DNA of 64,000 nt from Vulcanimicrobiota bacterium (GTDB lineage Bacteria; Vulcanimicrobiota; Vulcanimicrobiia; Vulcanimicrobiales; Vulcanimicrobiaceae), in assembly GCA_963777315.1 (NCBI GenBank), contig CAVZQC010000002.1, forward strand, positions 576,001-640,000, in the 5' to 3' direction. Below the pieces are notes generated by a model that did no database searches, had not been told where the DNA came from, and saw only the letters and a list, made by a program, of their open reading frames with translations. Of the stretch, positions 1-44,470 are shown piece by piece (within the stretch, counting starts at the first letter, position 1; every line of letters begins with the position of its first letter). The position numbers and the translations under genes were made by a program.

Positions 1-2
1 TT

Positions 3-587
3 CATCCGGCTGAACCGCAGTATTCGACGGCGCATTACGATCTCGCAATCGCCTATGCCAACCTCAAACGGCTCGACGACTCCGCGCGCGAATTCGGAGC
101 TGCAATCCAAGGCGATCCGGGCTTTTTGGCAGCGATGGCCAACCTGATTGCCGTCGATATTGCGCGCGGCAAGCTGGGGCAAGCGCGCCGCACGGCGGAT
201 CTTTTCGTCGCCGCCGCGCCCGACTCCGCACGCGCGCTCTATTCGCGCGGCCTGGTGGCACTGCGCACCGGTGATTTTGCGGTCGCGCAGCGCGATTTCT
301 CGCAGCTGCTGCGCAACGATCCGCAATACGCGCTCGCGCACTACAACTTGGGCATCGCGCAGACCAAACTCGGGGATTACGGCTCGGCGCAGCGCGAGCT
401 GAGCATCGCACTGGATTTGGCGCCCGGATACGCTCGCGCGCGCTTTGCGCTGGGGACGGTGCTGCTGCGCGAAGGAAAACGCGCGCAGGCTCGCCAGGCA
501 TTCGATCGCGTCGTTCGCGATGCGAACGGGGATCCGGCACTTGCGAATCTCGCGCTTGCCATGCGCGACGCAATTCACGCGCCCTAA
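3..587 (+). CDS. Tetratricopeptide-repeat protein (5' partial)
   Basis: Frame is open from position 3 to TAA at 585-587. Repeated TPR helices: AHYDLAIAY, ALYSRGLVAL, AHYNLGIAQ, ARFALGTVLL. Confidence 0.9.
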   Translation, partial: HPAEPQYSTAHYDLAIAYANLKRLDDSAREFGAAIQGDPGFLAAMANLIAVDIARGKLGQARRTADLFVAAAPDSARALYSRGLVALRTGDFAVAQRDFSQLLRNDPQYALAHYNLGIAQTKLGDYGSAQRELSIALDLAPGYARARFALGTVLLREGKRAQARQAFDRVVRDANGDPALANLALAMRDAIHAP

Positions 588-588
588 C

Positions 589-615
589 TTTCAGTCTTTT
601 TTCACGACTGTTCCA
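589..615 (+). promoter_or_regulatory. Candidate OmpR-family direct-repeat operator
   Basis: TTTCA (589), TTTCA (600) and TTCCA (611) at an exact 11-bp period, upstream of the operon that ends in an OmpR-family regulator. RBS AGGAGG at 638-643. Confidence 0.45.
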
Positions 616-649
616 TACGCTCTCCTCAACATACGTTAGGAGGGACATC

Positions 650-1246
650 GTGAACATACAGTACGCAGCTCTGCTTTTTGCCGGCATCGCATCGCTGAGC
701 GCCTGCGGCGCAGGCGGAGGCGGCGGCGTGAATCCGCCGCCGAATTCCAACCCGGGCGGCAACGTACCGCCGCCTACGGTGGGTGCGCAGACGATCGGTA
801 TCGCGCTGCCCGACGGAAACATCGGAAGCGTCGACACTGCGCCCTACGGCCGCGTGGGCGGATACACGCAATCGGTCTACTCGCAGGTGCTGGCCTTCGC
901 TCCGGGCACGACGATCACGCTCAAAAATCTGTCGTCCACCACGCCGCACACGCTCAACGTGCTCGGTACGAGCGGATTCCCCACCAATCCCACGCTTTCA
1001 ACCGCCGCTTCCGGCGGCACGGCGCTCGCGGCCGGATTTCAAAGCGGCTCGATCGCACCGGGGGCAACGATGAGCGTCACGCTGTCGACGCCGGGCACCT
1101 ATTACATCGGGTGCGCGTATCATTTCAACGACGCGCTCAGCATGCGCGACGTGCTGCTCGTGAGTTCGAGCGCGACGCCGGGACCGCAAGCAACGCCCCA
1201 GCCTTCAGGCGGCGGCAGCGGCGGTTGCGTGGGGCCGTACTGCTAA
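650..1246 (+). CDS. Cupredoxin (type-1 blue copper) lipoprotein
   Basis: GTG start after AGGAGG; lipobox LSAC; Gly/Pro linker; PHTLNV His and GTYYIGCAYHFNDALSM (C-x2-H-x6-M) ligand loop; C-terminal CVGPYC. Confidence 0.85.
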   Translation: MNIQYAALLFAGIASLSACGAGGGGGVNPPPNSNPGGNVPPPTVGAQTIGIALPDGNIGSVDTAPYGRVGGYTQSVYSQVLAFAPGTTITLKNLSSTTPHTLNVLGTSGFPTNPTLSTAASGGTALAAGFQSGSIAPGATMSVTLSTPGTYYIGCAYHFNDALSMRDVLLVSSSATPGPQATPQPSGGGSGGCVGPYC

Positions 1247-1803
1247 TGGGTTACTGCAAAGCGAGTGCGGCGATGCTGCTGGCGGCTGTTTTCGCACTCG
1301 CTCCTGCGGCTTGCTCAGCCGCTCCGGTTCACTTGGTCGATCAAACGGGGCACACTTTCACGTTTGCATCCCTGCGCGGCGAGCCGCTGATCGTTACGTT
1401 CGTTGCCGCCCACTGCACGGATGCATGCCCGCTGATCGACGCGCAGTTTTCGCAGGCCCAGCGGCTGTTCGCGCGGGCGCACCTTGCGGTGCGGCTGCTC
1501 ACGATCACGCTGGATCCCGAACACGATCCGCCCGCAGTCATGCGCGAACTCGCTCGCAGGTTCGGCGCGGACGCGCACCGCTGGCTGGTTGCGAGCGGAA
1601 GCGTGCGCGACGTCCACAATATCATGACCGCGTTCGGCGTGCGAGCCCAGCGCGGACGCGACGGTTATGCGGACGTCCATACGACGTTCGTGTACGTCTT
1701 CGATAAGCGCGGCGCGCTGCGCACGACGATCTTGGCTTCGACGGTATTGGGAACGCAGCTCGCGCGCGACGTTCGCACGCAGTGGCCGGTACTGGGACGA
1801 TGA
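1246..1803 (+). CDS. SCO1/SenC-family copper chaperone
   Basis: ATG in a TAATG overlap; LVDQTG, CTDAC (CxxxC), ITLDPEHD and a distal His in DVHTTFVYVFD. Confidence 0.9.
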   Translation: MGYCKASAAMLLAAVFALAPAACSAAPVHLVDQTGHTFTFASLRGEPLIVTFVAAHCTDACPLIDAQFSQAQRLFARAHLAVRLLTITLDPEHDPPAVMRELARRFGADAHRWLVASGSVRDVHNIMTAFGVRAQRGRDGYADVHTTFVYVFDKRGALRTTILASTVLGTQLARDVRTQWPVLGR

Positions 1804-2231
1804 AAGCGCTCGCGCCGCTGCTTCTCATGGTGCTGGCCGCCTGCACGCCGGGCGGAATCGCGCCCCCGGCAGGCGGTCAGGCCGTCGGCGCCGTGACGAC
1901 TATCGACGTCAACCTCACGCTGCACCCCGACGGCTACGCGCCCGACACGGTCAACGTTCCGGTCGGGAGCAGCATTCGTTTTTTCAATAGCGACGGTTTC
2001 GCGCATACGGCTACGCTGATTGCCGGCGCGACGACGTTCCCGAACGGCTCGCCGTTCGACGCGTCGGCGCAGACGCGCGCCGGCAGCGCGATTGCCGCGC
2101 CTTGGAGTTCGGGAACGCTGCCGTCCCAAAGCGCGTCGCAGATCATCGTCGCCGATACGCCGGGCACGTATTTCTTCGGATGCTTTTTCCACTACGGGGC
2201 ACCCATGAGGGGGAAGATCGTTGTTCGCTAA
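1800..2231 (+). CDS. Cupredoxin (plastocyanin-like) lipoprotein
   Basis: ATGA overlap; lipobox LAAC; FAHTAT His and GTYFFGCFFHYGAPMRGKIVV (C-x2-H-x4-M). Confidence 0.9.
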   Translation: MKALAPLLLMVLAACTPGGIAPPAGGQAVGAVTTIDVNLTLHPDGYAPDTVNVPVGSSIRFFNSDGFAHTATLIAGATTFPNGSPFDASAQTRAGSAIAAPWSSGTLPSQSASQIIVADTPGTYFFGCFFHYGAPMRGKIVVR

Positions 2232-2235
2232 ATGC

Positions 2236-3354
2236 ATGCGCGCCGTCGCGCCCGTTCTCATGAGCGCGTTCGCGTTATCGCAAACCTGCGGCAGTGCGCA
2301 GGCGATACCGCTTTTTGCCCAGCGCTATCATCTGCAGTGCGGAGCCTGTCACAGCGTGCTTCCCGAACTCAACTCGTTCGGCCAATACTTTCGCCGGCAC
2401 GGTTACCGCCTGGCGCTTGCCAAACACGGCACCACCGGCGTGGCGCTGCGGTACCAAATGGAGTACGAACGCGATCCCGCGCCCGGAAGCCGGCGTTTTT
2501 CACCCGGCGGGGTGCTGCTTTCGAATGCGGACATCGGCGCGGTAACCGCGTTCGTGCATTACAATCTGGGAGCGGGCGGAGGGCCGTCCGGGCTGTTCTT
2601 GGGATACCTGAACACGTACGACGCGCACACGCAATCGTCGTATCGTGCCGGATTATTCGAGCTGCCGCTCGCGCAATCACCCGGACAGCGTCTGGACGAT
2701 CTCGCGCCGTACGGATATTACGGCACGCACGTCGGCTTGAACGATCTGTCGCTGGCTTCGCCGCGCTGGGGCCTGCAAATCGAACGAACCGTCGGGTCGG
2801 CCCGCTTGGATTTGACCGTTTCGACCGGCGAGTTCAAAGGCGCAGCATACGGCGGAAAGCCGATCGACACCGGGGAAACGACCTCGGCCGATAGTCCGGA
2901 AACGGGGCTGTTCGCCGCCGTGCCGCTTGCCGACGGTACGGAGCTCGGCGGTGAAGCCATCGTGGGTTCGCGGCGCATCGTTCCGACGGGCAGGTCGGCA
3001 TTCGCCGACGCGTACCGGCGCACCGGACTGTTCGCGCACGCGACTATGCGCAAGCTGGACGTTCAAGCCGAACAATGGTGGGGCTTCGACGCGAATGCCG
3101 ACGGTTTCGGTTCGGGTATCGCCAGCAGCGGCGGCTATCTGCGCTTGAAGTACTATCCCAGCGCGCATTTCTATCTCGGCGTGCGGTACGATGCTGCGGC
3201 CAACCCCTTTTTGCAGCGCGACTTCGTGTACTACTTCGCATTTCACGTCACGCCCCACGCACGATTGCTTTTCCAAGAGGTGCAGACGGTGGGCGGCCGC
3301 GCAAGTCTGGGCGGAGCCCTAACGGTGGGAGCGCCCTGGCCGCCGAACGTGTAG
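2236..3354 (+). CDS. Cyc2-like outer-membrane monoheme cytochrome c / beta-barrel fusion
   Basis: Signal peptide ending AQA, then IPLFAQRYHLQCGACHSVLPELNSFGQYFRRHGY, which matches the Cyc2 N-terminal pattern PxFAxxxxxxCxxCHxxxPxLxxxGxxF. The remainder has amphipathic aromatic beta-strands (GGYLRLKYY, FYLGVRYD, FVYYFAFHV). Confidence 0.75.
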   Translation: MRAVAPVLMSAFALSQTCGSAQAIPLFAQRYHLQCGACHSVLPELNSFGQYFRRHGYRLALAKHGTTGVALRYQMEYERDPAPGSRRFSPGGVLLSNADIGAVTAFVHYNLGAGGGPSGLFLGYLNTYDAHTQSSYRAGLFELPLAQSPGQRLDDLAPYGYYGTHVGLNDLSLASPRWGLQIERTVGSARLDLTVSTGEFKGAAYGGKPIDTGETTSADSPETGLFAAVPLADGTELGGEAIVGSRRIVPTGRSAFADAYRRTGLFAHATMRKLDVQAEQWWGFDANADGFGSGIASSGGYLRLKYYPSAHFYLGVRYDAAANPFLQRDFVYYFAFHVTPHARLLFQEVQTVGGRASLGGALTVGAPWPPNV

Positions 3355-3373
3355 ACCGGCAAGGGAGACGCTC

Positions 3374-4042
3374 ATGCGCATACTGATCGTCGAGGACAAC
3401 GTCAGCGTTGCCGCTGCGGTGCGGACGATGCTCGAACGCCGCAAGTATGCCGTGGACGTGGCCGGCGACGGCGACGAGGCGCTGGCGCAGCTGGTGCAGC
3501 GAACGTATGACGCGGCGATCGTCGACGTCATGCTTCCCGGACGCGACGGATTCGAGGTCGCGTTTGCCGCGCGTTCGCAGGGCGTGCAGACGCCGCTGCT
3601 CATGCTCACCGCTCGGGACGCCGTCGAGGATCGCGTGCGCGGCCTGGACTGCGGTGCCGACGACTACTTGGTCAAGCCGTTCGTCGAAGAAGAGCTGGCG
3701 GCGCGGTTGCGCGCCCTCGTGCGCCGCGCGGATCGGCCGGTTCAAGACGTTCTGGAAGCCGGCACGATCGCCATCGACGCCAGCGCGCGCCAGGCCACTT
3801 GCATGGGCAAACCGCTGCGATTGGGCGCGACCGAGTTTCGCATGCTGGAATTCTTCGTGCGCAATGCCGGCATCGCGCTCAGCCGCGATCTGCTGCTGGA
3901 ACGACTGTGGGAGTACGATTTCGAGGGTTCCAGCAATATCGTCGACGTGTACGTCAGTCAGCTGCGCCGCAAGCTCAAACGCGCGGGCGGCGGCAATCCC
4001 ATCGCCACGGTATGGGGTATGGGATACAAATTCGTTTCGTGA
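3374..4042 (+). CDS. OmpR/PhoB-family response regulator
   Basis: ILIVED, phospho-acceptor in VDVMLPGRDG, GADDYLVKPF, winged helix NIVDVYVSQLRRKL...GMGYK. Confidence 0.95.
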   Translation: MRILIVEDNVSVAAAVRTMLERRKYAVDVAGDGDEALAQLVQRTYDAAIVDVMLPGRDGFEVAFAARSQGVQTPLLMLTARDAVEDRVRGLDCGADDYLVKPFVEEELAARLRALVRRADRPVQDVLEAGTIAIDASARQATCMGKPLRLGATEFRMLEFFVRNAGIALSRDLLLERLWEYDFEGSSNIVDVYVSQLRRKLKRAGGGNPIATVWGMGYKFVS

Positions 4043-4950
4043 CCGTCCGCCTCGCGCTGCGGTATTTGGCGATTTTCGCGCTCGTGCTTGCCGCGTTGAG
4101 TGCGGGCGCGTACGAATTTTTGGGACGCGAATACGCGACCTTGCTGCAGCCCGCGCTGGGCACGCCGGAAGGAATGCGCGCGTACGGAACGGCGATGCGC
4201 CGCATCGCACTGACGATCGTCGCATTCGACCTTCCCCTGCTCGCGCTGTTCGGCGCAGCGTCATGGCTGCTCGCGCGCGCTTCGCTGCTGCCGCTGCTGC
4301 AGGCGCGCGAACGCGAACGCGCGTTTGCCGTGGACGCCGCTCATGCGTTGCGCTCTCCGCTGGCGACGATTGCTTCGGTCGCGCAGGCTTCGCGCGACGG
4401 TCAGCCCGCGGCGATCTCGGGCGCATTCGATACGATTGCGCGCGCGGCGCTGGACGCATCGGCGGTCGTAGGAGATCTGCTCACGCTCGCGCGCAGTGCG
4501 CGGCCGGAACGCCTGCTTCGCGAGCCGCTCGACTTGAGCGCCGTCGTCGCCGACACGTCCAAAGAGTTCGTTCCGCTGGCGCGCGAGCTGCGCATCGAGA
4601 TCGAGCGCGATCTGACCGGCGCGGTCGTCGATGCGGACGAACGGCGGCTGCGCGAACTCACGCGCAATTTGCTCGACAACGCTCTGCGCCACGCGCGCGG
4701 ACGCGTCGCCGTCACTGCGCGTCCGGCGGGGCGGTGGGTGGAACTGATCGTCGGCAACGACGGCGAAGCGATCGCTCCGGAAAATCGCGAACGGATCTTT
4801 CAACGCTTTTTCAGCGCGAACGGGCAGGGCGGAAGCGGTTTGGGGCTTGCCATCGTGCGATGGATCGCGCAGGCGCACGGCGGATCGGCGTTCGTGCGCG
4901 ACGGCCCGGCAGGCGGTCCCGAGTTCGTCGTTCGTTTCCCGCCGGCATGA
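4039..4950 (+). CDS. Sensor histidine kinase (2 TM, short extracytoplasmic loop)
   Basis: GTGA overlap; H-box AAHALRSPL, N-box NLLDNALRH, F-box RIFQRF, G2 GSGLGLAIV. Confidence 0.9.
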   Translation: MTVRLALRYLAIFALVLAALSAGAYEFLGREYATLLQPALGTPEGMRAYGTAMRRIALTIVAFDLPLLALFGAASWLLARASLLPLLQARERERAFAVDAAHALRSPLATIASVAQASRDGQPAAISGAFDTIARAALDASAVVGDLLTLARSARPERLLREPLDLSAVVADTSKEFVPLARELRIEIERDLTGAVVDADERRLRELTRNLLDNALRHARGRVAVTARPAGRWVELIVGNDGEAIAPENRERIFQRFFSANGQGGSGLGLAIVRWIAQAHGGSAFVRDGPAGGPEFVVRFPPA

Positions 4951-4996: not shown

Positions 4997-5853
4997 ATGC
5001 AAGCTCTCACGTCCAAGCGCCTGACCGAGCTGCAGGTGCAGGCCAACGCGTGCCGCCAAGGCATCATTCGGTCGCTGCTCGCCGCGGGCTCGGGACACTC
5101 GGCCGGTTCGCTCGACATGGCCGATATTTTTACCGCTCTGTACCAGCATATTTTGCGGCACGATCCCGGCAATCCGCAGTGGCCAGATCGCGATCGCCTG
5201 CTGCTCTCGTGCGGCCACATCGCGCCGGTGCGCTACAGCGCGATGGCGTATGCGGGATACTTTCCCGTAGAGGAACTCCTCACGCTGCGCAAGTTCGGCA
5301 CGCGGCTGCAAGGTCACCCCGAGCGGGTGCGCATGCCCGCGCTCGAAACGACGTCCGGTCCGCTGGGCGAGGGCCTCGCGCAAGGCGTGGGCATGGCGCT
5401 GGGCGCGAAGATGGACGAAAAAGCTGGCGCGTGTACGTCGTTACGTCCGATGCCGAACATCAATGCGGTTTGCACTGGGAGGCCGTACTCACCGGCGCTA
5501 AGTTCAATCTCGACAATCTGATCAACATCGTCGACCGCAACTTCATTCAGATCGACGGCGGCACCGAGGAGATCATGCCGCTCCAACCGCTGGCGGACAA
5601 ATACCGCGCGTTCAACTGGAACGTGCTAGAGTGCGACGGCAACGATATCGAAGAATTCGTTTCGACCGTTGAAAAGGCGCAAGGCTGCCGCGGCAAGCCC
5701 AGCGTCATCATCGCTCATACGGTGCCCGGCAAAGGCGTAGCGTACATGGAAGGCGATTACACCTGGCACGGCAAGCCTCCGAACGCCGATCAGGCCGACA
5801 AAGCGCTGCGCGAACTGCAGGAGCAGCGCGAAAGGCTCGTCGCGCATGGCTAA
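4997..5853 (+). pseudogene. Transketolase N-terminal (TPP-binding) subunit, frameshifted
   Basis: SGHSAGSLD, DRLLLSCGH, LQGHP and SGPLGEGL in the first frame. Continues in the -1 frame after the A5 run at 5418-5422 (SWRVYVVTSDAE...NFIQIDG...HTVPGKG...WHGKPP). Probably an assembly indel. Confidence 0.85.
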
Positions 5854-17554: not shown

Positions 17555-17727
17555 TGGACCCGTTCCAGCGTGCTCGCAGCCAGGGTCGCGAGCAAAACGC
17601 CGGCATAGAGCGGCGCGATCCACCAGCCTAAAGTATGGCGCAGCGTGAGAGCCAGCGCCGCCGCCAGCGCGATACCGGCCGGCGTGACCAGCGAATTTCC
17701 CGCCACAAAGGCATGAATGCGTTTCAC
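17551..17727 (-). CDS. Small 2-TM membrane protein (58 aa)
   Basis: GTGA overlaps at both ends; two hydrophobic helices. Confidence 0.6.
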   Translation of the reverse strand: MKRIHAFVAGNSLVTPAGIALAAALALTLRHTLGWWIAPLYAGVLLATLAASTLERVQ

Positions 17728-18440
17728 GCGCGTACCGCGGGACGCCGCCAAAGCGCGATCAGCAGCAGCGCGGCCACAACGTACAGTGCGATGAGCCACG
17801 CGAGCGTCGCTTCACCCCACCACCACGGCACGCCCAAACCTTCGCCGCTCCAAAAGGTGCCGAACGAGAGCAGCATGATGCCCACGATGAAAGCCAGCGC
17901 GTTTTCCGGCACGCGCGAAAAAGGCCGTCGCGCAATCGCGGCCGCGCATAAAACGATTACGCCGGCAATCAACGCTCCCGCCGCCGCCCACAAGAACGTG
18001 CCGGCGCGCGCGGCGGAAAAGGTCACCACGATGACGGCGACTTCGAGTCCTTCGAGCAAGACGCCGTTGAACGCGGTCGCGAAAGCAAAGCGCTGTTCGT
18101 GCGCGCGAAGCCGCTCGACTTCGGAACTGAACTTCGCGTTCTCGTTGCGCATCGGCTTGCGGCCCGCATACCTCCAAATCGCTTTGCGAAGCCACGTGTA
18201 GCCCATGAAGGTCAAGAAAATTCCGATGCCGATCTGCAGCGCCCGCAGCGGCACGTAAGCGGCCAGAGCCGGGCCCAATACGCCGGCGATCACGACCAGC
18301 ACCGCTACCGCCCATGCAGTCGCGCGCAGCGCGACGCGCCAGCCTGCGGTATACGCGACCGCAAGCACGATCGTCGCTGCTTCGACGAACTCGAGCAGCG
18401 AGGCCAGAAAAGTCGTTCCGGCCGCGATCCAAGGGCTCAC
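17724..18440 (-). CDS. COG4280-like membrane protein (duplicated ExxE motif)
   Basis: FLASLLEFVEAATIVLAV and FNGVLLEGLEVAVIV repeats; WLRKAI; RVPENALAFIVGIMLLSFGTFW. Confidence 0.75.
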   Translation of the reverse strand: MSPWIAAGTTFLASLLEFVEAATIVLAVAYTAGWRVALRATAWAVAVLVVIAGVLGPALAAYVPLRALQIGIGIFLTFMGYTWLRKAIWRYAGRKPMRNENAKFSSEVERLRAHEQRFAFATAFNGVLLEGLEVAVIVVTFSAARAGTFLWAAAGALIAGVIVLCAAAIARRPFSRVPENALAFIVGIMLLSFGTFWSGEGLGVPWWWGEATLAWLIALYVVAALLLIALWRRPAVRA

Positions 18441-32713: not shown

Positions 32714-33487
32714 TTAAGCCGCGCGCAGGTAACGCAAGAGCGCGGTCAGCAATCCGGCGGCGGTGAAGTCGGAGGCGACGACGCGGGGCTGCAGGCCCAT
32801 CTCACGCGCGGTTTGCGCCGTGATGGGTCCGATGCAGGCAACGAGTTTATTCTGAGCCGCGGCAGCGCAAGCGACGCCGCCGCCCAGGTTGTGCGAGAAC
32901 CCGCGAACGGTACTGGTGCTCGTGAAAGTCAGAATGTCGCTCTGCTGTACCTTGCCGGCGAACTGCGGATCGTCGGTGAAGACCGTTTTGTACGCAGCAA
33001 CCACGTGTGGGTTGCGCCCCGCTGCGCGTAAACGCTCGGGCAAAACGTCGCGCGCTTCCTGTGCGCGGTAAATCAACAGGTCTTCGCCCGGTCTGCTTGC
33101 GACGATCAATGCCTGCGCCAGGTCTTCGGCGACGTACGATTGCGGAACGAGATCGGCGTAAATTCCGCGCGTGCGCAGCGCCGCCGAGGTGGCGATGCCA
33201 ATCGCGGCGATCTTGGCGCTTCCCAACGCCCGCGCATCCTCCCGCCGCGCATCGAGCAGATCGAAGAAGGCCTTTACGCCGTTGGCGCTGGTGAAAACGA
33301 TCCAGGCGTTGCCGCCCGCACTCGCAACGGCTAGTTCTGCGGCGGCGCGATCGTCGGGGGGACGCATTGCAATCGTCGGAGCCAAAATCGGGTGCGCGCC
33401 GGCCGCGGTAAGCGCTTGAACGAATTCGTGGTTTTGGTGTGCAGGCCGCGTGACGAGCACGCGTTTACCGTTAAGCGGCGAGCTGAC
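32714..33487 (-). CDS. hemD: Uroporphyrinogen-III synthase
   Basis: PLNGKRVLVTRP, IVFTSANGV, AAIG, AYKT, FTSTSTV, ACIGPITA. The expected start position reads GTC (see findings). Confidence 0.9.
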   Translation of the reverse strand, partial: VSSPLNGKRVLVTRPAHQNHEFVQALTAAGAHPILAPTIAMRPPDDRAAAELAVASAGGNAWIVFTSANGVKAFFDLLDARREDARALGSAKIAAIGIATSAALRTRGIYADLVPQSYVAEDLAQALIVASRPGEDLLIYRAQEARDVLPERLRAAGRNPHVVAAYKTVFTDDPQFAGKVQQSDILTFTSTSTVRGFSHNLGGGVACAAAAQNKLVACIGPITAQTAREMGLQPRVVASDFTAAGLLTALLRYLRAA

Positions 33488-34815
33488 TCGTCGACATCGG
33501 CCGTCGGTTGCGACGGACGGGCTTTGGCCAGTTCCTCGGCGATGTTCAGTTCGAACAGCTCGTCGAGCAGACGCGCGTGTTCGAGAGCTTCGGAGTGGTT
33601 GGACGCGGTTTTGTCGCGAATCTTCGTCACGACCGTGTGCAGCAGTTTGGAGATGATCGTCATCGACATCCCGGTGATGAGCATTTTCTCGCGTTCGCTC
33701 AACTCCGGGCAGCGCGCGAGCAGCCGATCGAGTTCCGCCGAGCGGACGGTTTCGGCTTTTCGGGTGAGCGACGCGATCACCGGAACCGCCAGCCGCGATT
33801 GATACCACTGGTGAAAGCGCTCGAGGTATTCCTCGATGATTTCTTCGACCTGCGGAATGGCCTCGCGGCGCACTTCCAGCTTTTCCTGCACGTGCGATTT
33901 GAGCCCGTCGACGTCGATCAGCGTGACGCCGTCGATGTTGGCGACGTCGGGGTGGACGTCGCGCGGTACCGCGATGTCGATGATGAACAGCGCAGCGTTC
34001 GGGCGACGCGACATGGCTGGCGCCACGATGTCCGGCGTCAGCACGAAATGCGAAGCGCCCGTCGAGGTGACGGCAATGTCGGCGCAGGCCAGTGCATCGA
34101 GCAGCCCGGGCAGCTCGACCGCGTGCCCGAAGCCGATCTCGCTGACCACGTCTTGCGCGTGCTTGATCGTGCGGTTACTCACGATCAGGTTGCGGGTGCC
34201 TTCGGCGCGCAGACGCTTTGCCGCGGTTCGGCCCATTTTGCCTGCGCCGATGATGACGACGTTGCGATCGGCCAGCGTACCGAATTGCCTGCGCGCCAGC
34301 TCGATGGCCGCCGTTGCAATCGAGCTCGATTCGTCGCCGATCCGAGTCTGCGAGCGGGCGGATTTTCCCGCGCTCATCGCTTCCCGGAACAGGCGGTGCA
34401 GCGTTTTTCCCAGCGAGCCGGCATCTTGCGCGGCGATGAACGCGTCCTTGACCTGGCCCAGAATCTCCGCCTCGCCGATCAGCATCGAATCCAAGCCCGT
34501 ACTCACGCGCAGCAGATGCTCGACCGCGGCGCGCCCCAGCAGCGTATAGAGATACGATTCCAAATCGTAGCCGACCATGCCGTGACGGAAGTTCAACAGA
34601 AACGACTTGAGCTGCTCGACGCCCGCTTCGTAGTCGGAAACGTCGGCGTAAATTTCCAGCCGCCCGCAGGTTTGCAGCATGACCGCTTCGCGAACGGCCT
34701 GGTAATCGCGCAGAGCGACCAGCGCGGCCTCCATGCGGGAAGCCGGAAACGCGTGGCGCTCGCGCACTTCAACGGGCGCGGTATGGTGAGAGAGTCCCAG
34801 GCAAACCAGCGGCAT
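33331..34815 (-). CDS. hemA: Glutamyl-tRNA reductase
   Basis: GLSHHTAPVEVRE, QTCGRLE, GLDSMLIGEAEILGQVK, GAGKMG, DIAVPRD. The natural end is probably near 33484 (see findings). Confidence 0.95.
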   Translation of the reverse strand: MPLVCLGLSHHTAPVEVRERHAFPASRMEAALVALRDYQAVREAVMLQTCGRLEIYADVSDYEAGVEQLKSFLLNFRHGMVGYDLESYLYTLLGRAAVEHLLRVSTGLDSMLIGEAEILGQVKDAFIAAQDAGSLGKTLHRLFREAMSAGKSARSQTRIGDESSSIATAAIELARRQFGTLADRNVVIIGAGKMGRTAAKRLRAEGTRNLIVSNRTIKHAQDVVSEIGFGHAVELPGLLDALACADIAVTSTGASHFVLTPDIVAPAMSRRPNAALFIIDIAVPRDVHPDVANIDGVTLIDVDGLKSHVQEKLEVRREAIPQVEEIIEEYLERFHQWYQSRLAVPVIASLTRKAETVRSAELDRLLARCPELSEREKMLITGMSMTIISKLLHTVVTKIRDKTASNHSEALEHARLLDELFELNIAEELAKARPSQPTADVDESARRLTVNACSSRGLHTKTTNSFKRLPRPARTRFWLRRLQCVPPTIAPPQN

Positions 34816-34918
34816 CTATCGTCTTGTCATCGTATGGCGCGCGCAACCCTGCCAACTAGCGGTTTTATCGCACGGCAGAGGCGCTGCCGACTCCAGGGCA
34901 AGCGGCCCTCGAGCCCGA

Positions 34919-36223
34919 TCAACGCTGCACCGGCGCGAGCAGTTGCTCGAGTGCATCGTTCGCCGCTGCAACCGTCTGCTCGACCTCACGCGTGCCGTGC
35001 GCGCAGGACACGAATGCGCTTTCGAACTGCGAGGGCGCCAAGTACACCCCGCGATCGAGCATCGCGTGAAAGAAGCGCGCGTACAGCGCGGTATCCGACG
35101 TCATGGCGCTTTGCAAATCATGAACCGGGTCTTGCGTGAAGAACGTGCACAGCATCGAGCCCGCATAAGCGCTGTAATGCGGAACGTCGTATTTGGCCAG
35201 CACTTCGTGCAAGCTGTCGCAGAGCAGTTTTGCGAGCACCTCGAGCCGTTCGTACAGCGTCGCATCGGCGAGAATGGTGCGAAGCGTCGCGATGCCTGCA
35301 GCCATCGCAAGCGGATTTCCCGAGAGCGTTCCGGCTTGATAGACTGCACCGTCGGGCGCAAGTTCTGACATGATCTCCGCGGAGCCGCCGAACGCGCCGA
35401 CCGGCAAACCGCCGCCGATCACTTTGCCCAGCGTGGTGAGATCGGGCCGCACGTTTTCGCGCTCCTGCGCGCCGCCCCGTGCGACGCGAAAGCCCGTCAT
35501 CACTTCATCGAAGATCAGCAGCGTTCCGTGCTGCGTGCACATCGAGCGCAATGCTTGAAGATACCCGGGCTGCGCCGGAACCAGGCCCATATTGCCGGCG
35601 TACGGCTCGATGATCACCGCCGCGATCTTGCGCGGGTGCGCATCGAAGACTGCTGCGACGGCCTGCGTGTCGTTGTACGGCAGCACGATGGTTTCGCGGG
35701 CGACGCCTTCGGTAACTCCGGGCGAGTTGGGAATCCCGTTGGTGAGCGCGCCGCTGCCCGCGGCGATCAAAAATGAATCGGCGTGGCCGTGGTAGCAGCC
35801 GGCGAACTTGACGATGAGCTCGCGGCCGGTGTATCCGCGCGCCAAACGCACGGCGCTCATGGCGGCTTCGGTGCCGCTGGACGTAAAGCGAATGCGTTCG
35901 ATTGACGGCATCATCGTGCGGATCAATTCGCCGAGCTCGGACTCGGCTTCGGTCGGCGTGCCGAACGAACTGCCGCGCTGGGCAGCCTGCGCGATCGCTT
36001 TGACGACTGCGGGATGCGCGTGTCCGAGAATCAACGGTCCCCAGGACAGCACGTAGTCGACGTACTCGTGCCCGTCGATGTCGTACAGGAACGGGCCTTG
36101 GCCGCGCTGCATGAACACCGGCGATCCGCCGACCGCGCGGAACGCCCGCACCGGCGAATTGACGCCGCCCGCGATGATGCCTCGCGCTCTGGCGAAGGCG
36201 GAGATGGACCGTTCTAGACGCAA
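34919..36223 (-). CDS. hemL: Glutamate-1-semialdehyde 2,1-aminomutase
   Basis: GGVNSPVRAF, SSGTEA, GCYHGH, FDEVMTGFR, GKVIGGGLP, APSQFE. Confidence 0.97.
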   Translation of the reverse strand: MRLERSISAFARARGIIAGGVNSPVRAFRAVGGSPVFMQRGQGPFLYDIDGHEYVDYVLSWGPLILGHAHPAVVKAIAQAAQRGSSFGTPTEAESELGELIRTMMPSIERIRFTSSGTEAAMSAVRLARGYTGRELIVKFAGCYHGHADSFLIAAGSGALTNGIPNSPGVTEGVARETIVLPYNDTQAVAAVFDAHPRKIAAVIIEPYAGNMGLVPAQPGYLQALRSMCTQHGTLLIFDEVMTGFRVARGGAQERENVRPDLTTLGKVIGGGLPVGAFGGSAEIMSELAPDGAVYQAGTLSGNPLAMAAGIATLRTILADATLYERLEVLAKLLCDSLHEVLAKYDVPHYSAYAGSMLCTFFTQDPVHDLQSAMTSDTALYARFFHAMLDRGVYLAPSQFESAFVSCAHGTREVEQTVAAANDALEQLLAPVQR

Positions 36224-36232
36224 TGCCGACCT

Positions 36233-36808
36233 CTATGCCTGGAGTAATGCGCGGCGATCTGCCGCCGTATTAACGTTGGCAAAGACGCGTTCGTCCGAAA
36301 GGTGCACGCGTTTCGCACGAAGCTCTTCGACGACGGCCGCAACTCCTCCCGATCCGCCGGACCGCAGGCCGGCTGCTGCGGCCAAAAAGGCAAGGCGGTC
36401 GTACAGAGCGCACAGCGGCTCCAAGGGGCCGGCGGCGTTGACCGGCACCACGGCTTGAAGGGACGGCTCCCACAACGCCGTCAGTTCGCGCGCGGTGGCG
36501 GCAGTTACGAACGGCGCGTCGCCCGCGACCACGAATATGCGCTGATGCGGAATCTGCTCGAACGCCGAGTAGAGCGCGGCTGCCGGACCGCGGCGGGGCC
36601 AGCGATCGACGATTATCGGGCAATCGAGCTCCCTGTCGATCTCGGGCGGAAAGGAGCCTGCGGCGGCCACATAGACCGGCCCCGCGTCGCGCACGTTGCG
36701 ATAGACCCGCAGCACAAGCGGCCTGCCGCCCGCATCGAGATGCAGCTTGCCGGGCAAGCGCGTCGCTTCGCCGCCGGCCAAGATGACGACGGCCGGCGGT
36801 GGAGTCAT
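36233..36808 (-). CDS. mobA: Molybdenum cofactor guanylyltransferase
   Basis: ILAGGEATRL.GK, GPAAAL, AGDAPF, EPLCALY, NVNT. Confidence 0.8.
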   Translation of the reverse strand: MTPPPAVVILAGGEATRLPGKLHLDAGGRPLVLRVYRNVRDAGPVYVAAAGSFPPEIDRELDCPIIVDRWPRRGPAAALYSAFEQIPHQRIFVVAGDAPFVTAATARELTALWEPSLQAVVPVNAAGPLEPLCALYDRLAFLAAAAGLRSGGSGGVAAVVEELRAKRVHLSDERVFANVNTAADRRALLQA

Positions 36809-37797
36809 AGATAGGCGTGCCGCGCGGCGAAATCTTTGGCGAAATACGTGATGACGATGTCGGCTCCGGCGCGCACGAAACAGACCAGCAGTTCGTCGAC
36901 CGCGCGCTCTTCCTCTATCCAGCCGTTTTGCGCGGCAGCTTTGACCATCGCGTACTCGCCGCTGACGTTGTATACCGCGATCGGCGTATCGAATCGCACT
37001 CGGGCCGCGCGCACGATGTCTAAGTACGCAAGGCCAGGCTTGATCATCACGATGTCAGCGCCTTCCGCAACGTCCAATGCGATTTCGCGAAGCGCTTCAC
37101 GTTCGTTGGGCGGATCCATTTGATAACTGCGCCGGTCGCCAAATGCGGGCGTGGAATCGGCGGCTTCGCGAAACGGTCCGTAAAACGCCGAAGCGTACTT
37201 TGCGCTGTACGCCATGATGGCGGTCTGTTCGAAGTTGTCGGCATCGAGCGCTTTGCGAATCGCCCCCACGCGCCCGTCCATCATGTCGGAAGGAGCAATG
37301 ACGTCGACGCCGGCCCGCGCGTAGGTCAGCGCGGTTCGCGCGAGCACTTCCACCGTGGCATCGTTTTCGACGTCCCCCGCCGTATCCAGGATTCCGCAAT
37401 GCCCGTGATCGGTGTATTCGCAGTTGCATAAGTCGGCGATGACCACGACGTGAGGAAAGGCGGCTTTGATGGCGCGCGCGGTGCGCTGGACGATGCCGTC
37501 GGGGTCGTAGTTGGCGCTCGCGAAGGCATCTTTGGTCTGCGGTATTCCGAACAGCAGCACGCTGTGCAGCCCGAGCGCGTCGAGCACGCCCACCTCTTGC
37601 ACTGCGCCGTCTGCGGTGTAGCGTTCGATGCCGGGCATCGATCCGATGGGACCAGCGCCGTTCGCATCTTCGACCACGAACAGCGGCTGCACCAGTTGCG
37701 AAACGTGCACGCGATGCTCGCGCACCAGCGATCGCATGCTGGGGCTGCGTCGCAGCCGTCGCGGACGAAACGTTTGCTGCAAGCTAGCGCGCTGCAT
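36805..37797 (-). CDS. hemB: Porphobilinogen synthase (Zn-type)
   Basis: RPRRLR, CNCEYTDHGHCG, APSDMMDGR, SAFYGPFR, MIKPG, YNVSGEY. Confidence 0.97.
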   Translation of the reverse strand: MQRASLQQTFRPRRLRRSPSMRSLVREHRVHVSQLVQPLFVVEDANGAGPIGSMPGIERYTADGAVQEVGVLDALGLHSVLLFGIPQTKDAFASANYDPDGIVQRTARAIKAAFPHVVVIADLCNCEYTDHGHCGILDTAGDVENDATVEVLARTALTYARAGVDVIAPSDMMDGRVGAIRKALDADNFEQTAIMAYSAKYASAFYGPFREAADSTPAFGDRRSYQMDPPNEREALREIALDVAEGADIVMIKPGLAYLDIVRAARVRFDTPIAVYNVSGEYAMVKAAAQNGWIEEERAVDELLVCFVRAGADIVITYFAKDFAARHAYL

Positions 37798-41015: not shown

Positions 41016-42497
41016 TTATTTTCGTAGCTTGGCGACGTCCGATTCCTTGACGGCGCCCGCGTGATTCGTGCCCAGCGCGCTGCGAATGTAGGTCACCACG
41101 TCGGCGATGTCTTTGTTCGACAGCGTCTTCCACGGCGGCATCATGCCGTTGAAATTCTGCCCGTGCACCGAAATGGGCCCGGTTTTGCCGTTGAGCACGG
41201 TCGTGATGACGGCGCCGGCATCGCCGGTGACGAAATCGTTGCCGTCCAGCGGCGGAGCGACGTTGGGCGTGCCTTGACCGCTCGCGCCGTGACAGCTCGA
41301 GCAGTTTTGCGCAAAGACCTTTTGGCCGGCCGCCGCCTGAGGGCTGGTTGCAGCCGAAGTCGTGCTCGGCGGTCCGCCGGCGTTGCCGCCGCTGCGATTG
41401 ACGTTGGCCTGCTCTTTGGCAGCAACTGCCGCGGTGGGATTGGTCGCGGCCGCAGCCTGCTTTGCCATGATCGAAACCTGGCTCCAGATCGTCAGCGCCC
41501 ACATAACGATGAGCGCACCGCCGACCATCAGCATCACCGGTTTGCGGGAGCCGAACATGCGCGTCGTCGATCGATCGATCCACGGCATGAGCAAAATCAG
41601 CAGCGTCGCTACGCCGGGGATCACTAATGCGCCGATCACTTCGAAATCGCCCGGCACCAAATTGAGCAGTCCGAAGAGATCCAGGAAGTACCACGCCGGA
41701 TACGGCGTGAACTGAACGGTCGGATCGGCTTTCGCGTCGAGAAACGGCGGCGCGAATGCGGCTAGCGCAACCACGAACAAGAAGATGACGAACGACGCAA
41801 ACCCGTCCATGAACATCTGATCCGGCCAGAAGCGCCCCTTCTTGAGCGGGCGCGGATCTTCAACGGGAGGCCCGGCAGGGCCGTTCCAGCGGAAGATCGC
41901 CAAATGCGCGCCCACCAGCGCAATCAGAATTGCGGGCATCAACCAAACGTGCAGGCCGAAGAAGCGGTTGATGGTGAGCGTCCCCATCGTCGTGCCGTCT
42001 TGGGTGAACTGCTGGATGAACGCGCCGATGATCGGAGCTTGCAGCGTGAGATTGATGGCGACCTGCGAGGCGAAGTACGCGTTCATATCCCACGGCAGCA
42101 GGTAGCCCGTCAGGCCGAGCACCATGGTGACCAGCAGCAGAAGCACGCCGACGATCCACTGCAGTTCGCGCGGCGATTTGTACGCGCCCCAGACGACCAC
42201 TTGCAGCAAGTGCAAAAACAGCAGGGCGATCATCGCCGAAGCGCCCCAATAGTGCACGCTCAGCACGAAATGCTGGAACGGATGATCGTACATCGACTTG
42301 GTGGATTCCCACGCGGTCATGGCCGAGGGCGCGTAGAAAAAAGTTAGGAAGATGCCGGTGACGATCTGCAGGATCATCGCGAACAGCGTCGCGCTGCCGA
42401 AAACGTACCAATAGCTTGCGCCGCCGGGGATGTCCTCGGTAAGGAAGTCCTTCGTCATGCTGACGAAGCCGGTGCGCCGTTCGATCCAGTTCAGCAT
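41016..42497 (-). CDS. Cytochrome b (b6 + subunit IV-like) fused to C-terminal cytochrome c
   Basis: Heme His pairs HYWGASAMIALLFLH and HVWLMPAILIALVGAH; TGYLLPWD; PAWYF; then CSSCH...MMPPW. GAGGA RBS before the ATG at 42497. As assembled it is in frame with the upstream Rieske gene. Confidence 0.92.
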   Translation of the reverse strand: MLNWIERRTGFVSMTKDFLTEDIPGGASYWYVFGSATLFAMILQIVTGIFLTFFYAPSAMTAWESTKSMYDHPFQHFVLSVHYWGASAMIALLFLHLLQVVVWGAYKSPRELQWIVGVLLLLVTMVLGLTGYLLPWDMNAYFASQVAINLTLQAPIIGAFIQQFTQDGTTMGTLTINRFFGLHVWLMPAILIALVGAHLAIFRWNGPAGPPVEDPRPLKKGRFWPDQMFMDGFASFVIFLFVVALAAFAPPFLDAKADPTVQFTPYPAWYFLDLFGLLNLVPGDFEVIGALVIPGVATLLILLMPWIDRSTTRMFGSRKPVMLMVGGALIVMWALTIWSQVSIMAKQAAAATNPTAAVAAKEQANVNRSGGNAGGPPSTTSAATSPQAAAGQKVFAQNCSSCHGASGQGTPNVAPPLDGNDFVTGDAGAVITTVLNGKTGPISVHGQNFNGMMPPWKTLSNKDIADVVTYIRSALGTNHAGAVKESDVAKLRK

Positions 42498-43196
42498 CGT
42501 TGCTCTATCCTCACTGGTGTACGAAATGACGATGCGATTGGGAACCGTCGGCTGATACCGGATCCACTCGACCTGTGCTTGCCCGCTTTGCTCGCGCAGC
42601 GGCAAGGGGTCGAGCCCGCGGGCCGCCGGACCTGCGATGTGCGTGCCGTCAAAGCTGAACTGGGAACCGTGGCACGGGCACTGGAACTTGCCCGCCGCCG
42701 CATTGTACTGATAGAAGCAGCCTAAGTGCGGACAAATCGGGCTGAACAGCACGAAGCCCAAATTGACGATCTGATACGGCAATTCGTTTTTGCCGGTCGC
42801 AGGGTTGAACAGATCGGGACGCGCCTTCTGGAACTGCGCTTGATTCTTGACCTTGATCCCCCACACCGATTGCGGAGCCGATTCCTCGGGCAGATACGCG
42901 TCCTTGGTCTTGAGGTTGATATCGATCTTCACGGGCTTTTCGGTTGCGCTTTGCAGCGCGCTCCAACCGGCGGCATCGAGCGGCGTCCACGTCGCGCCAC
43001 CGCTGCCCACGTCGGGAATCAGCGAGCCGACGATCGGGATGGCCAAGCCCAGTCCGATGAGGCCGCCGATGGCAAGCGTGGCGTTGGCCATGAACGTGCG
43101 GCGGGTGATCTCCTCGTGGCTGCCTTCGTCGTCGTAAGCGCTGGCAATTCGAGGATGGGCGCCCTCATTCGGCGTGGTTTGGGCGTGGCTCGACAA
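42498..43196 (-). CDS. Rieske iron-sulfur subunit of the bc complex
   Basis: Tat motif TRRTFM plus TM; CPHLGC and CPCHGSQF; GPAARGL. No stop codon as assembled; a TGA lies one base out of frame at 42511-42513. Confidence 0.92.
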
Positions 43197-43453
43197 ATCG
43201 GTGGTCTCCGCAGGGCAACGTGGTTGGCGAATGTTTCACACCGATTCTACGCCCGCCCTCTCGCGGCGGCGACGACCATGCTCGGACTGACAAAAAAGGC
43301 GCCGGCCGCCCTGGAAGTACTCTCGCGCCGGATTGGAACCGCATGGCCATCGCCAGCCGCGCCGCATGCTGTGCGCGAGCCGGGAAGAAACGCTCGATCG
43401 TGCTCTCGTCCACGATGGCGGCGCTGTTCCGTGCCGAAGGCGCTGCGTTTACG

Positions 43454-44470
43454 CTACATCTTGTCACTGTGCAGACCGCTAATCCACAAGTTCACGCCGA
43501 AGTAGCAGAACATGATCGTGAGAAACCCTATCGCGCTCACCCATACGCTGCGCACTCCGCGCCACTCTTTGCGCGTGTGCAAGTGCATGTAAATGGCGTA
43601 GACGATCCAGGAGAACAGCGCGGCGGTCTCCTTGGGATCCCATTGCCAGTATGCTCCCCAGGCTTCGTGCGCCCACATCGCTCCGGTGATGACGCCCAAC
43701 GTGAGCAGCGGTAGGCCGACGGCGACGATCCGGTAGACGAGCACGTCGAGCTGCGCGAGGCTGGGCATCGTGCCGAGCCACTGCGCGACGCTGCTTCCGC
43801 CGGCTGCGGCTGCAGCGATGTTCGGGGTGTCCATGCGCACCGCAACCGCGCGCGGTGCGATCGCGGCATCCCCAACGGAGAGCTGCGCGCCCTGGTATGC
43901 CAGCGATCCGGCCAGCAGTTGGCCGCCGGGCTTTGACACGGCGCCCCCGGCGGCGAGGGTTGTTTTTGCGCCCAGCCCGCGCTCGAAATAGTATTTCACT
44001 AAATAGAGCGCCGACATCACGAACGCGACCATGAACGCCGAGTACGACGAAACGACCAGCGGAACGTGGATCTTGGCCCAATACGACTGCAGCGACGGAA
44101 CGGCGGGCATCGTTCCTTCGTTCCACGTCACTCCGTACGCAAGAAAGAGCGCCGCAAGCGCGAGCACGAAGCCGCCGGCGAACCACAACTTGTACCGCAG
44201 CGCAAATACGATGAAGATCCCGACCGAAATCGTCGCAAACAGTGAAAGCGATCCGTACAGGTTGAGCAACGGCCAGATGTGCGTTATTTCATACCGCGCC
44301 ACGAGCTGCGCGATTTGCGCGACGCACCCGGCGATCGCCAGCGGCGCGCCGAGGTGCAGCAGCCATTCTTCGCGCGAAAAAAAGTAGACGAGCAAGGCGA
44401 GCGCGCCGACGACGTACGCGCCCAGCGCGACGATCATCAGCACTTCGTCGAGCGGCATGTGTGCGTGCAT
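43454..44470 (-). CDS. ccsA: Cytochrome c biogenesis system II protein CcsA/ResC
   Basis: PSLQSYWAKIHV, WWD motif WAHEAWGAYWQWDPKET, GLHS. Confidence 0.95.
   Translation of the reverse strand: MHAHMPLDEVLMIVALGAYVVGALALLVYFFSREEWLLHLGAPLAIAGCVAQIAQLVARYEITHIWPLLNLYGSLSLFATISVGIFIVFALRYKLWFAGGFVLALAALFLAYGVTWNEGTMPAVPSLQSYWAKIHVPLVVSSYSAFMVAFVMSALYLVKYYFERGLGAKTTLAAGGAVSKPGGQLLAGSLAYQGAQLSVGDAAIAPRAVAVRMDTPNIAAAAAGGSSVAQWLGTMPSLAQLDVLVYRIVAVGLPLLTLGVITGAMWAHEAWGAYWQWDPKETAALFSWIVYAIYMHLHTRKEWRGVRSVWVSAIGFLTIMFCYFGVNLWISGLHSDKM

Follow-up and report, generated by a model that had tools for sequence, protein, structure and literature searches.

Cyc2 is the main marker gene of microbial iron oxidation, and the role of its distant homologues in bacteria not known as iron oxidisers is an open question (PMC8406198, PMC5566968). 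Cyc2 proteins are defined by a signal peptide, one CxxCH motif with AXPXFAR[Q/K][T/Y] upstream and PxL downstream of it, and a 16-strand OprO/OprP-like barrel (PMC8406198); a review lists their structure as unsolved (PMC13741234). In the rus operon of Acidithiobacillus (cyc2-cyc1-cup-coxBACD-rus) a Cyc2-type porin is encoded with cupredoxins, and in the cyc2-HiPIP-cytochrome c clusters of Bradyrhizobium and Burkholderiaceae a compact Cyc2 gene stands with small periplasmic electron carriers (PMC5566968). Other Cyc2 neighbourhoods or clusters are reported in PMC5566968, PMC7029218, PMC10654088 and bioRxiv 10.1101/2022.05.06.490989. Here we describe an operon at positions 650 to 4950 of a 64,000-nucleotide stretch of a Vulcanimicrobiota genome (GCA_963777315.1, contig CAVZQC010000002.1, positions 576,001 to 640,000; the whole stretch is called the window below). 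It is a real, class-wide and regulated module around a divergent protein of the Cyc2 kind. Cyc2-like genes or predicted iron oxidation have already been published for Eremiobacterota from mine drainage and tailings (PMC8357290, PMC13594681). The preliminary description, made from the DNA letters alone, gave the arrangement as not known to be described, and our literature searches, outside which most subscription papers lay, gave no paper on the operon, its promoter box or its link to a TPR protein.

All six co-oriented genes of the preliminary description were confirmed in the open reading frame list and the sequence. Cup1 (650..1246, + strand) is an accessory lipoprotein type-1 cupredoxin with lipobox Cys19 and the ligands His100, Cys155, His158 and Met165. 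It is followed by an accessory SCO1/SenC copper chaperone (1246..1803, +; signal peptide, Cys57-x3-Cys61, His145) and by Cup2 (1800..2231, +), a plastocyanin-like lipoprotein cupredoxin with lipobox Cys15 and His69, Cys128, His131 and Met136, which is the core partner of the porin. The Cyc2-like monoheme cytochrome-porin (2236..3354, +) has 372 amino acids with Cys35, Cys38 and His39 as its CxxCH residues; its signal peptide, read by eye and without a predictor, likely ends at Ala23. An OmpR-family response regulator (3374..4042, +; Pfam: Response_reg and Trans_reg_C) and a histidine kinase with two membrane helices (4039..4950, +; Pfam: HisKA and HATPase_c) complete the row. The overlaps TAATG (1244-1248), ATGA (1800-1803) and GTGA (4039-4042) are present, and the remaining two junctions are short gaps of 4 nt (Cup2/porin) and 19 nt (porin/regulator). 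As had been noted, the operon holds no terminal oxidase, and Cyc1 and rusticyanin are likewise absent from it. The unit reaches further upstream than six genes. It includes a conserved promoter box and the gene of an exported TPR protein (Pfam: TPR), whose 3' part occupies 1..587 (+) and which starts about 230 nt before the window. The box appears here as a direct repeat of 11-bp period, TTTCA-N6-TTTCA (588..605, +), in the place of a -35 element, followed by the -10 element TACGCT (616..621, +) and the ribosome-binding site AGGAGG (638-643, +), both read from the sequence.

The porin had been described as a fused Cyc2-like cytochrome-porin, and the predicted structure bears this out. The model, built on 79 rows (predicted local distance difference test, pLDDT, 91.2; predicted template modelling score, pTM, 0.87), has three short helices round the CxxCH and then 16 strands after residue 48, that is, a small helical heme domain in front of a beta-barrel. 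The best structural match among 48,161 chains is OprP (PDB: 2o4v; Z 23.1, root-mean-square deviation 3.2, 279 residues aligned), which is also the best structural match of the Cyc2 proteins. The next match has Z 21.8 and several other porins lie within 1.5 Z, while Foldseek places 16-strand porins on top and OprP only at rank 50. No usable sequence match was found in Pfam, NCBIfam or the PDB. In the broad alignment (A1) 79 of 79 rows have a single CxxCH, which in the porin lies near the N-terminus. Like A. ferrooxidans Cyc2, Mariprofundus Cyc2PV-1 and Leptospirillum Cyt572, the protein combines a signal peptide and an N-terminal CxxCH with AxPxFA and PxL flanks. Its upstream motif, AIPLFAQRY, keeps the frame and spacing of Cyc2 but has Q-R-Y where those proteins have R-[QK]-[TY]; the strict PxFAR[QK][TY] occurs in just 3 of 79 aligned relatives and the relaxed frame including PxL in 71 of 79. 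The strict filter of the published Cyc2 tree would thus have excluded this porin, while its length is above the FeGenie filter of 365 residues. PxL is present as PEL, four residues past the CxxCH, and Pro21 and Leu23 are invariant in 28 orthologues. With 350 residues modelled, the porin is shorter than the Cyc2 proteins (medians 397 and 520), and it differs from them further in a basic barrel and in belonging to a separate Eremiobacterota clade with at least three subfamilies. Heme attachment and an outer-membrane location are predicted; the cultured member of the phylum does have an outer membrane (PMC9758169).

For comparison with known Cyc2 motif scans and plasmid hits supplied 72 complete proteins of cluster 1 type, whose sources are named genomes of Zetaproteobacteria, Gallionellaceae, Chlorobium and others, as well as four Cyt572-like and two Burkholderiaceae proteins; A. 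ferrooxidans Cyc2 is outside this set. The broad profile A1 aligned with cluster 1 Cyc2 over 308 columns (probability 99.1%, 15% identity), a further point for membership of the Cyc2 kind. Self-built Cyc2 hidden Markov models, standing in for those of FeGenie, gave the porin scores of only 18-27 bits over its first 36-82 residues. In a FastTree tree of 75 sequences and 335 columns, midpoint-rooted and weak at its deep nodes, all Eremiobacterota sequences and some environmental rows form one clade (support 0.98). Twelve cluster 1 sequences form their own clade (0.995) with the porin outside, and the Burkholderiaceae pair and Cyt572 also stand apart from the Eremiobacterota clade. The node uniting the porin with Cyt572 has a support of 0.475; Cyt572 was represented by just two rows, without a published alignment of cluster 3. 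Fe(II) oxidation, proposed earlier by analogy with Cyc2, is not transferable, because the similarity to functionally tested Cyc2 is largely limited to the first 40-120 residues. The porin is Cyc2-like in build but divergent, and its function is not readable from any tested relative. Close relatives with a name come from Ca. Baltobacteraceae and Ca. Tumulicola and are labelled 'hypothetical' or, in one case, 'mono/diheme cytochrome c family protein'; most members of the two nearest Atlas clusters belong to Vulcanimicrobiota.

The gene cluster is kept across one class of soil bacteria (Eremiobacterota). A homologue of the porin was found in 60 of 61 relatives, and the orthologue profile hits 140 of 251 genomes of the phylum. 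The class has three families, with hits in 123 of 172, 2 of 3 and 14 of 18 genomes; the search of other families gave 0 of 57. The gene is mostly single-copy and near-core in the largest of these samples (123/172). The counts in this study include the unpublished genomes G019, G021, G028, G029, G048, G059 and G250, which are part of alignments A3 and A4 as well; each conclusion also has other genomes behind it. After 14 rows had been dropped as partial or weak, 132 full-length porin hits were set against the best 143 Cup2 hits listed, and Cup2 lies 20-261 nt upstream on the same strand for 128 of the 132. Among the four misses, two have a frameshifted Cup2, one has Cup2 cut by a contig end and one lacks Cup2 on a 4-kb contig. 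A synteny survey covered 62 loci from 62 genomes, with 46 loci from family f1 and 16 from families f2 and f3. Cup2 is present in 61 loci, regulator and kinase in 43, SCO in 38 and Cup1 in 26, and the exact six-gene order recurs in 19. This recurrence, together with Cup2 in 61 of 62 loci, shows that the grouping is not due to chance. SCO occurs in 38 of the 46 f1 loci and in none of the 16 f2/f3 loci, from all of which Cup1 is absent too. A Lipoprotein_15-like lipoprotein, judged by eye, replaces Cup1 in six loci, and in one (L038) a HiPIP-like gene directly precedes Cup2; searches of the literature on Lipoprotein_15/COG4315 found no relevant paper. The conserved core is thus two genes, Cup2 and the porin, with SCO and Cup1 as accessories. 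Co-conservation, which the preliminary description had made a test of its proposal, holds for this pair and fails for all six genes together, and an obligatory six-gene unit is rejected.

The two cupredoxins had been called lipid-anchored and plastocyanin-type instead of rusticyanin-type, and loops, ligands and the Cup2 fold agree with this. Both sequences contain a lipobox, and lipid anchoring of Cup2 is likely on this basis. The Cup2 loop is C-x2-H-x4-M in this genome and the Cup1 loop C-x2-H-x6-M; the His/Cys/His/Met ligands are kept in 26 of 26 and 13 of 13 rows, respectively. Rusticyanin has a C-x4-H-x4-M loop. Pfam Copper-bind matches Cup2 above the cut-off (E 1.7e-5) and Cup1 weakly, below it (E 0.079). 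The Cup2 model (pLDDT 89.6) has a cupredoxin fold with matches tied at Z 10.8-11.8, among them plastocyanin (11.2) and pseudoazurin; rusticyanin reaches Z 7.9 and is not among the 42 PDB sequence hits of Cup2. The best PDB sequence match of Cup1 is plastocyanin (E 6e-4). The type-1 assignment follows from ligands and modelled fold for Cup2 and from ligands alone for Cup1. Rusticyanin identity is ruled out by the loop spacing and by the lower Z of rusticyanin for Cup2. The SCO protein matches Pfam SCO1-SenC (E 2.5e-21) with CxxxC and a distal His, and it may load copper onto Cup1 and Cup2. The dedicated SCO of the preliminary description is dispensable in families f2 and f3.

A dedicated two-component system had also been proposed, and both the linkage of regulator, kinase and TPR gene and the conserved box speak for it. 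The TPR gene is present in 43 of 43 loci with the regulator and in 0 of 19 loci without it. In family f3 the best TPR hit lies directly behind the best kinase hit in five of five genomes tested, and in four of the five this cassette shares its contig with the Cup2-porin pair, at a distance of about 20-25 kb. The TPR protein is probably an accessory of the two-component system. The periplasmic loop of the kinase has only about 27 residues and contains no conserved His, Met or Cys in an alignment of 43 rows, four of which are truncated or out of frame; the kinase has no sensor domain. Candidate signal partners are for this reason the TPR protein and a small exported protein encoded upstream. The small protein is conserved and has about 85 aa and one conserved Cys motif; its gene comes between a second copy of the box and the TPR gene. 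Just before the window lies a divergent 602-aa TonB-receptor-like gene (G000:C2:573672-575770; L195:13672-15770). The best NCBIfam scores of the regulator are RppA (207 bits) and cztR/silR/copR (183 bits), both below cut-off. With the cyanobacterial CopRS and NrsRS (RppA/RppB) systems (background in PMC4284471) the operon shares an OmpR-family regulator, a TTCA-type direct repeat and an autoregulated layout, and RppA and RppB are the top NCBIfam scores of its two-component system, below the cut-offs. It differs from them in a kinase lacking a periplasmic metal-binding domain and in that no efflux pump was found under the box. The short loop without conserved ligands, the sub-threshold NCBIfam scores and the efflux genes without a box do not agree with a CusRS/CopRS copper-resistance system.

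The box, TT(C/T)A-N7-TTCA exactly 10 nt before TAnnnT, was found in 51 of 58 regions upstream of the first operon gene (62 loci minus four with contig ends, rearrangement or an uncovered start). Shuffled regions gave a mean of 0.9 and a maximum of 3 with the box matrix, which was trained on the same sites. The plain pattern alone is in 45 of 58 regions against 0.2 in shuffles, and the spacing to the -10 is kept in 51 of 51 boxes. The window has one match against 0.01 expected. With a generic sigma-70 scan, neither a promoter nor a terminator stood out above chance. The box is likely the binding site of the operon's OmpR-family regulator. It resembles the Synechocystis CopR site, TTCAT-N4-5-TTCAT, which is also found at promoters not controlled by copper (PMC4182526), but has a repeat period of 11 where that site has 9-10.

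Genome-wide, the pattern of box plus -10 matches 181 times, with 55 of 61 genomes represented, while the reversed control matches 26 times. We examined 73 boxes in 70 loci (30 supplied, 40 chosen by the analyst). The first gene is a cupredoxin in 12 cases, another lipobox protein in 21, a regulator in two by rule (a third by eye), something else in 29 and uncalled in nine. Pfam families among 48 box-linked proteins scanned include Lipoprotein_15, beta-propellers, YceI, HiPIP (in L286), DUF305, a COX2 subunit and Hsp20; many have no family and none matches an efflux family. More than one regulator may use such boxes, since of the three regulators behind a box two have their nearer counterpart in this genome in another regulator than that of the operon. 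In this genome the intergenic sites of box plus -10 are three: the operon, the TPR unit and a Lipoprotein_15-like lipoprotein gene on C4 (G000:C4:921132-921700). The last stands behind a strong copy of the box, and relatives put this family in the position of Cup1. There is no box at the genome's two heavy-metal P-type ATPases, at the two RND genes checked or at the iron permease.

We tentatively favour, while stopping short of calling it probable, a reading of the operon as an inducible heme-to-copper electron relay that oxidises a reduced metal for housekeeping or extra energy and not for autotrophic iron oxidation. The electron donor would be small and dissolved, most likely a metal ion in reduced form (Fe(II) or Cu(I)). 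It would pass into the pore and reduce the heme there; a docked Cup2 would then take over the electron, which would end on oxygen at oxidases encoded elsewhere in the genome. The regulator would bind the box and switch the operon on, with the TPR protein and the small exported protein feeding the signal to the kinase. The purpose may be metal-redox housekeeping in the envelope or supplementary energy in mostly heterotrophic cells. This reading is suggested by the Cyc2 architecture (as in PMC8406198) with Cup2 upstream of almost every full-length orthologue, and by the recurrence of one-electron partners: a HiPIP-like gene in L038, a HiPIP in L286, and HiPIP and cytochrome c genes on the flanks of the Caballeronia Cyc2-like gene. 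Sister paralogues have a multicopper oxidase or extra CxxCH domains. The reading also draws on the invariant copper ligands, on the 12 cupredoxin genes headed by the box, and on the presence of ccsA and resB, a bc-type fusion and five COX1-family genes. The window holds ccsA and resB for system II heme attachment (CcsBA), and the genome has the five COX1-family (heme-copper oxidase-family) genes and one NiFe-hydrogenase-family gene. RuBisCO was not found in this genome (89.9% complete); 7 of 40 genomes with the orthologue and 6 of 21 without it have RuBisCO, leaving out a weak hit in G013. A link between operon and carbon fixation was not found (Fisher p 0.34, among kin that are not independent).

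Several results weigh against the relay as we favour it. The orthologue-only profile (A2) aligns with cluster 1 Cyc2 and Cyt572 over only about 40-60 N-terminal residues (56-59 columns), and the function of distant Cyc2 homologues is described as uncertain (PMC8406198). No Met is conserved in the porin alignment as a sixth heme ligand. The conserved barrel columns comprise 12 basic and 9 acidic residues, against 2 and 7 in the 72 cluster 1 Cyc2; several of the Arg would face the pore by strand alternation, which does not favour a cation. Many box-led genes encode lipoproteins or beta-propellers without a known redox role. The three oxidase operons and the bc fusion of this genome have no box, so the downstream electron chain would not be co-regulated.

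These points bear on what else the operon might do. The basic, Arg-rich conserved barrel and its best match, an anion channel, would suit a relay, or a sensor, whose redox substrate is not a metal and possibly an anion, such as superoxide, nitrite, a sulfur oxyanion or a soil quinone, with electrons flowing either way, in an envelope redox-stress regulon. Exported proteins, including YceI, Lipoprotein_15 and beta-propellers, do dominate the regulon (a cupredoxin or another lipobox protein stands behind 33 of 73 boxes), and yceI follows 9 of 21 family genes in 20 paralogue loci. We nevertheless consider such a substrate unlikely: a conserved Arg opposite loop-3 acids is common in 16-strand porins, other porins score close to OprP, 26 of 28 orthologues have Dx[DN]xDG, a motif typical of divalent-metal sites, and Fe(II) is oxidised by each of the three Cyc2 relatives that have been tested (PMC8406198). 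A further reading is a true iron-oxidation energy pathway as in the rus operon, with lithotrophic or autotrophic growth on Fe(II). The logic would be the same as from Cyc2 to rusticyanin (PMC5566968), the genome has several oxidases, and Eremiobacterota from mines with Cyc2-like proteins are predicted iron oxidisers (PMC8357290, PMC13594681). Yet the absence of Cyc1, oxidase and rusticyanin sets the operon apart from rus operons (PMC10654088), as do its plastocyanin-like lipoproteins; SCO, the TPR protein and the two-component system are added here, and the carriers are mostly non-autotrophs, as the RuBisCO count indicates. A near-core gene is not the mark of an iron niche, the tree separates the porin from cluster 1 and from Cyt572, and the paper on the cultured member mentions neither Cyc2 nor ferrous iron (PMC9758169). 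An energy pathway on iron is therefore quite improbable. With the cyc2-HiPIP clusters the operon shares a compact Cyc2 gene and small electron carriers, and one relative adds a HiPIP-like gene; its usual carrier is a likely lipid-anchored blue-copper protein.

Copper acquisition or tolerance, in which cupredoxins and SCO bind or buffer periplasmic copper and the two-component system senses it, would give the SCO and the one to three cupredoxins per locus a direct role. The divergent TonB-dependent receptor-like gene would import copper and the heme-porin would change its oxidation state. The receptor-like gene (Atlas score 0.94) lies divergently upstream in 38 of 62 loci, and in 27 of 41 loci a second box on the opposite strand overlaps its start and points at the TPR unit. 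The box resembles the CopR site, one box precedes a DUF305 protein, and the second Cyc2-like gene of the genome has two SCO genes and the genes of a TonB receptor and a multicopper oxidase as neighbours. CopM, too, carries a DUF305 domain. The same box differs from the CopR site in its period, however, and the CopR pattern is not confined to copper promoters (PMC4182526). Neither the P-type ATPases nor the RND genes are boxed, 0 of 48 box-linked proteins are in efflux families, the kinase loop conserves no His, Met or Cys, and SCO and Cup1 are absent from all 16 f2/f3 loci. Copper handling thus seems rather unlikely to us, and the narrower alternative of the preliminary description, copper resistance, fits poorly, with efflux genes outside the box and a kinase lacking a metal-binding sensor domain.

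A bolder reading, which we hold to be doubtful, is that the Cyc2 fold diversified within Eremiobacteria into three or more subfamilies, which differ in the partner they are wired to and in their upstream motifs. The partners would be a blue-copper lipoprotein, YceI, and a multicopper oxidase with extra cytochrome domains. The Cup2-paired subfamily would then be an Arg-lined redox conduit for a substrate other than Fe(II), switched by a sensor-less kinase with its TPR protein. If true, no Cyc2-type protein before it would have had a task other than iron, and reading iron oxidation from Cyc2 hits in the phylum would be a mistake.

The porin is present in more than half of the genomes sampled from this soil phylum, so the answer matters either way. 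If it oxidises Fe(II), a widespread and mostly heterotrophic group enters the iron cycle via a copper relay; if it does not, calls of iron oxidisers from Cyc2-like hits in the phylum need revision. The operon is a compact test case with a small porin, one fixed partner, and a defined box with a likely regulator, and the box makes the inducing signal accessible to a simple reporter test.

The constant theme of the wider family is a heme-porin with an exported partner. In sister paralogues a multicopper oxidase gene comes next (L056, L057, L058, L059, L193) or extra CxxCH domains are carried. The second Cyc2-like gene of this genome (G000:C5:219400-230000; L193:7415-17972) encodes 589 aa with a fused C-terminal cytochrome c and a small further domain. 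It is followed by the multicopper oxidase and TonB-dependent receptor genes, with MauE/DoxX, thioredoxin-like and two SCO genes nearby, forming a copper island. In L045:5096-8664 two Cyc2-like genes flank a monoheme cytochrome c gene, followed by yceI. The box of the operon is absent before 20 of the 21 family genes in the 20 paralogue loci; the remaining one scored 10.0 and has no -10. A palindrome, TTAGG-N4-CCTAA, precedes 15 of the 21 family genes in 20 loci (L041-L059; 12 exact, three with one mismatch), with divergent PadR genes in three loci and Fur-family genes near two; genome-wide it is not above the reversed control. Two database proteins of about 1,040 aa (P0066, P0136) join a chemoreceptor-like N-terminal part to a whole Cyc2-like domain, by fusion or through a missed stop.

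Elsewhere in the window, a single 726-aa Rieske-cytochrome b-cytochrome c fusion (41019-45879) adjoins ccsA and resB, and hemA, hemL and hemB lie at 33334-37737. An OFeT-type ferrous iron permease (17727-18440) and, outside the window, a stand-alone lipoprotein with apparently two cupredoxin domains (G000:C2:671209-672153) are both without a box. Directly behind the operon, a transketolase N-terminal gene (4997-5853) shifts frame at a run of A near 5420; from 10411 onward a small ferredoxin-like frame seems broken as well; both are probably assembly indels.

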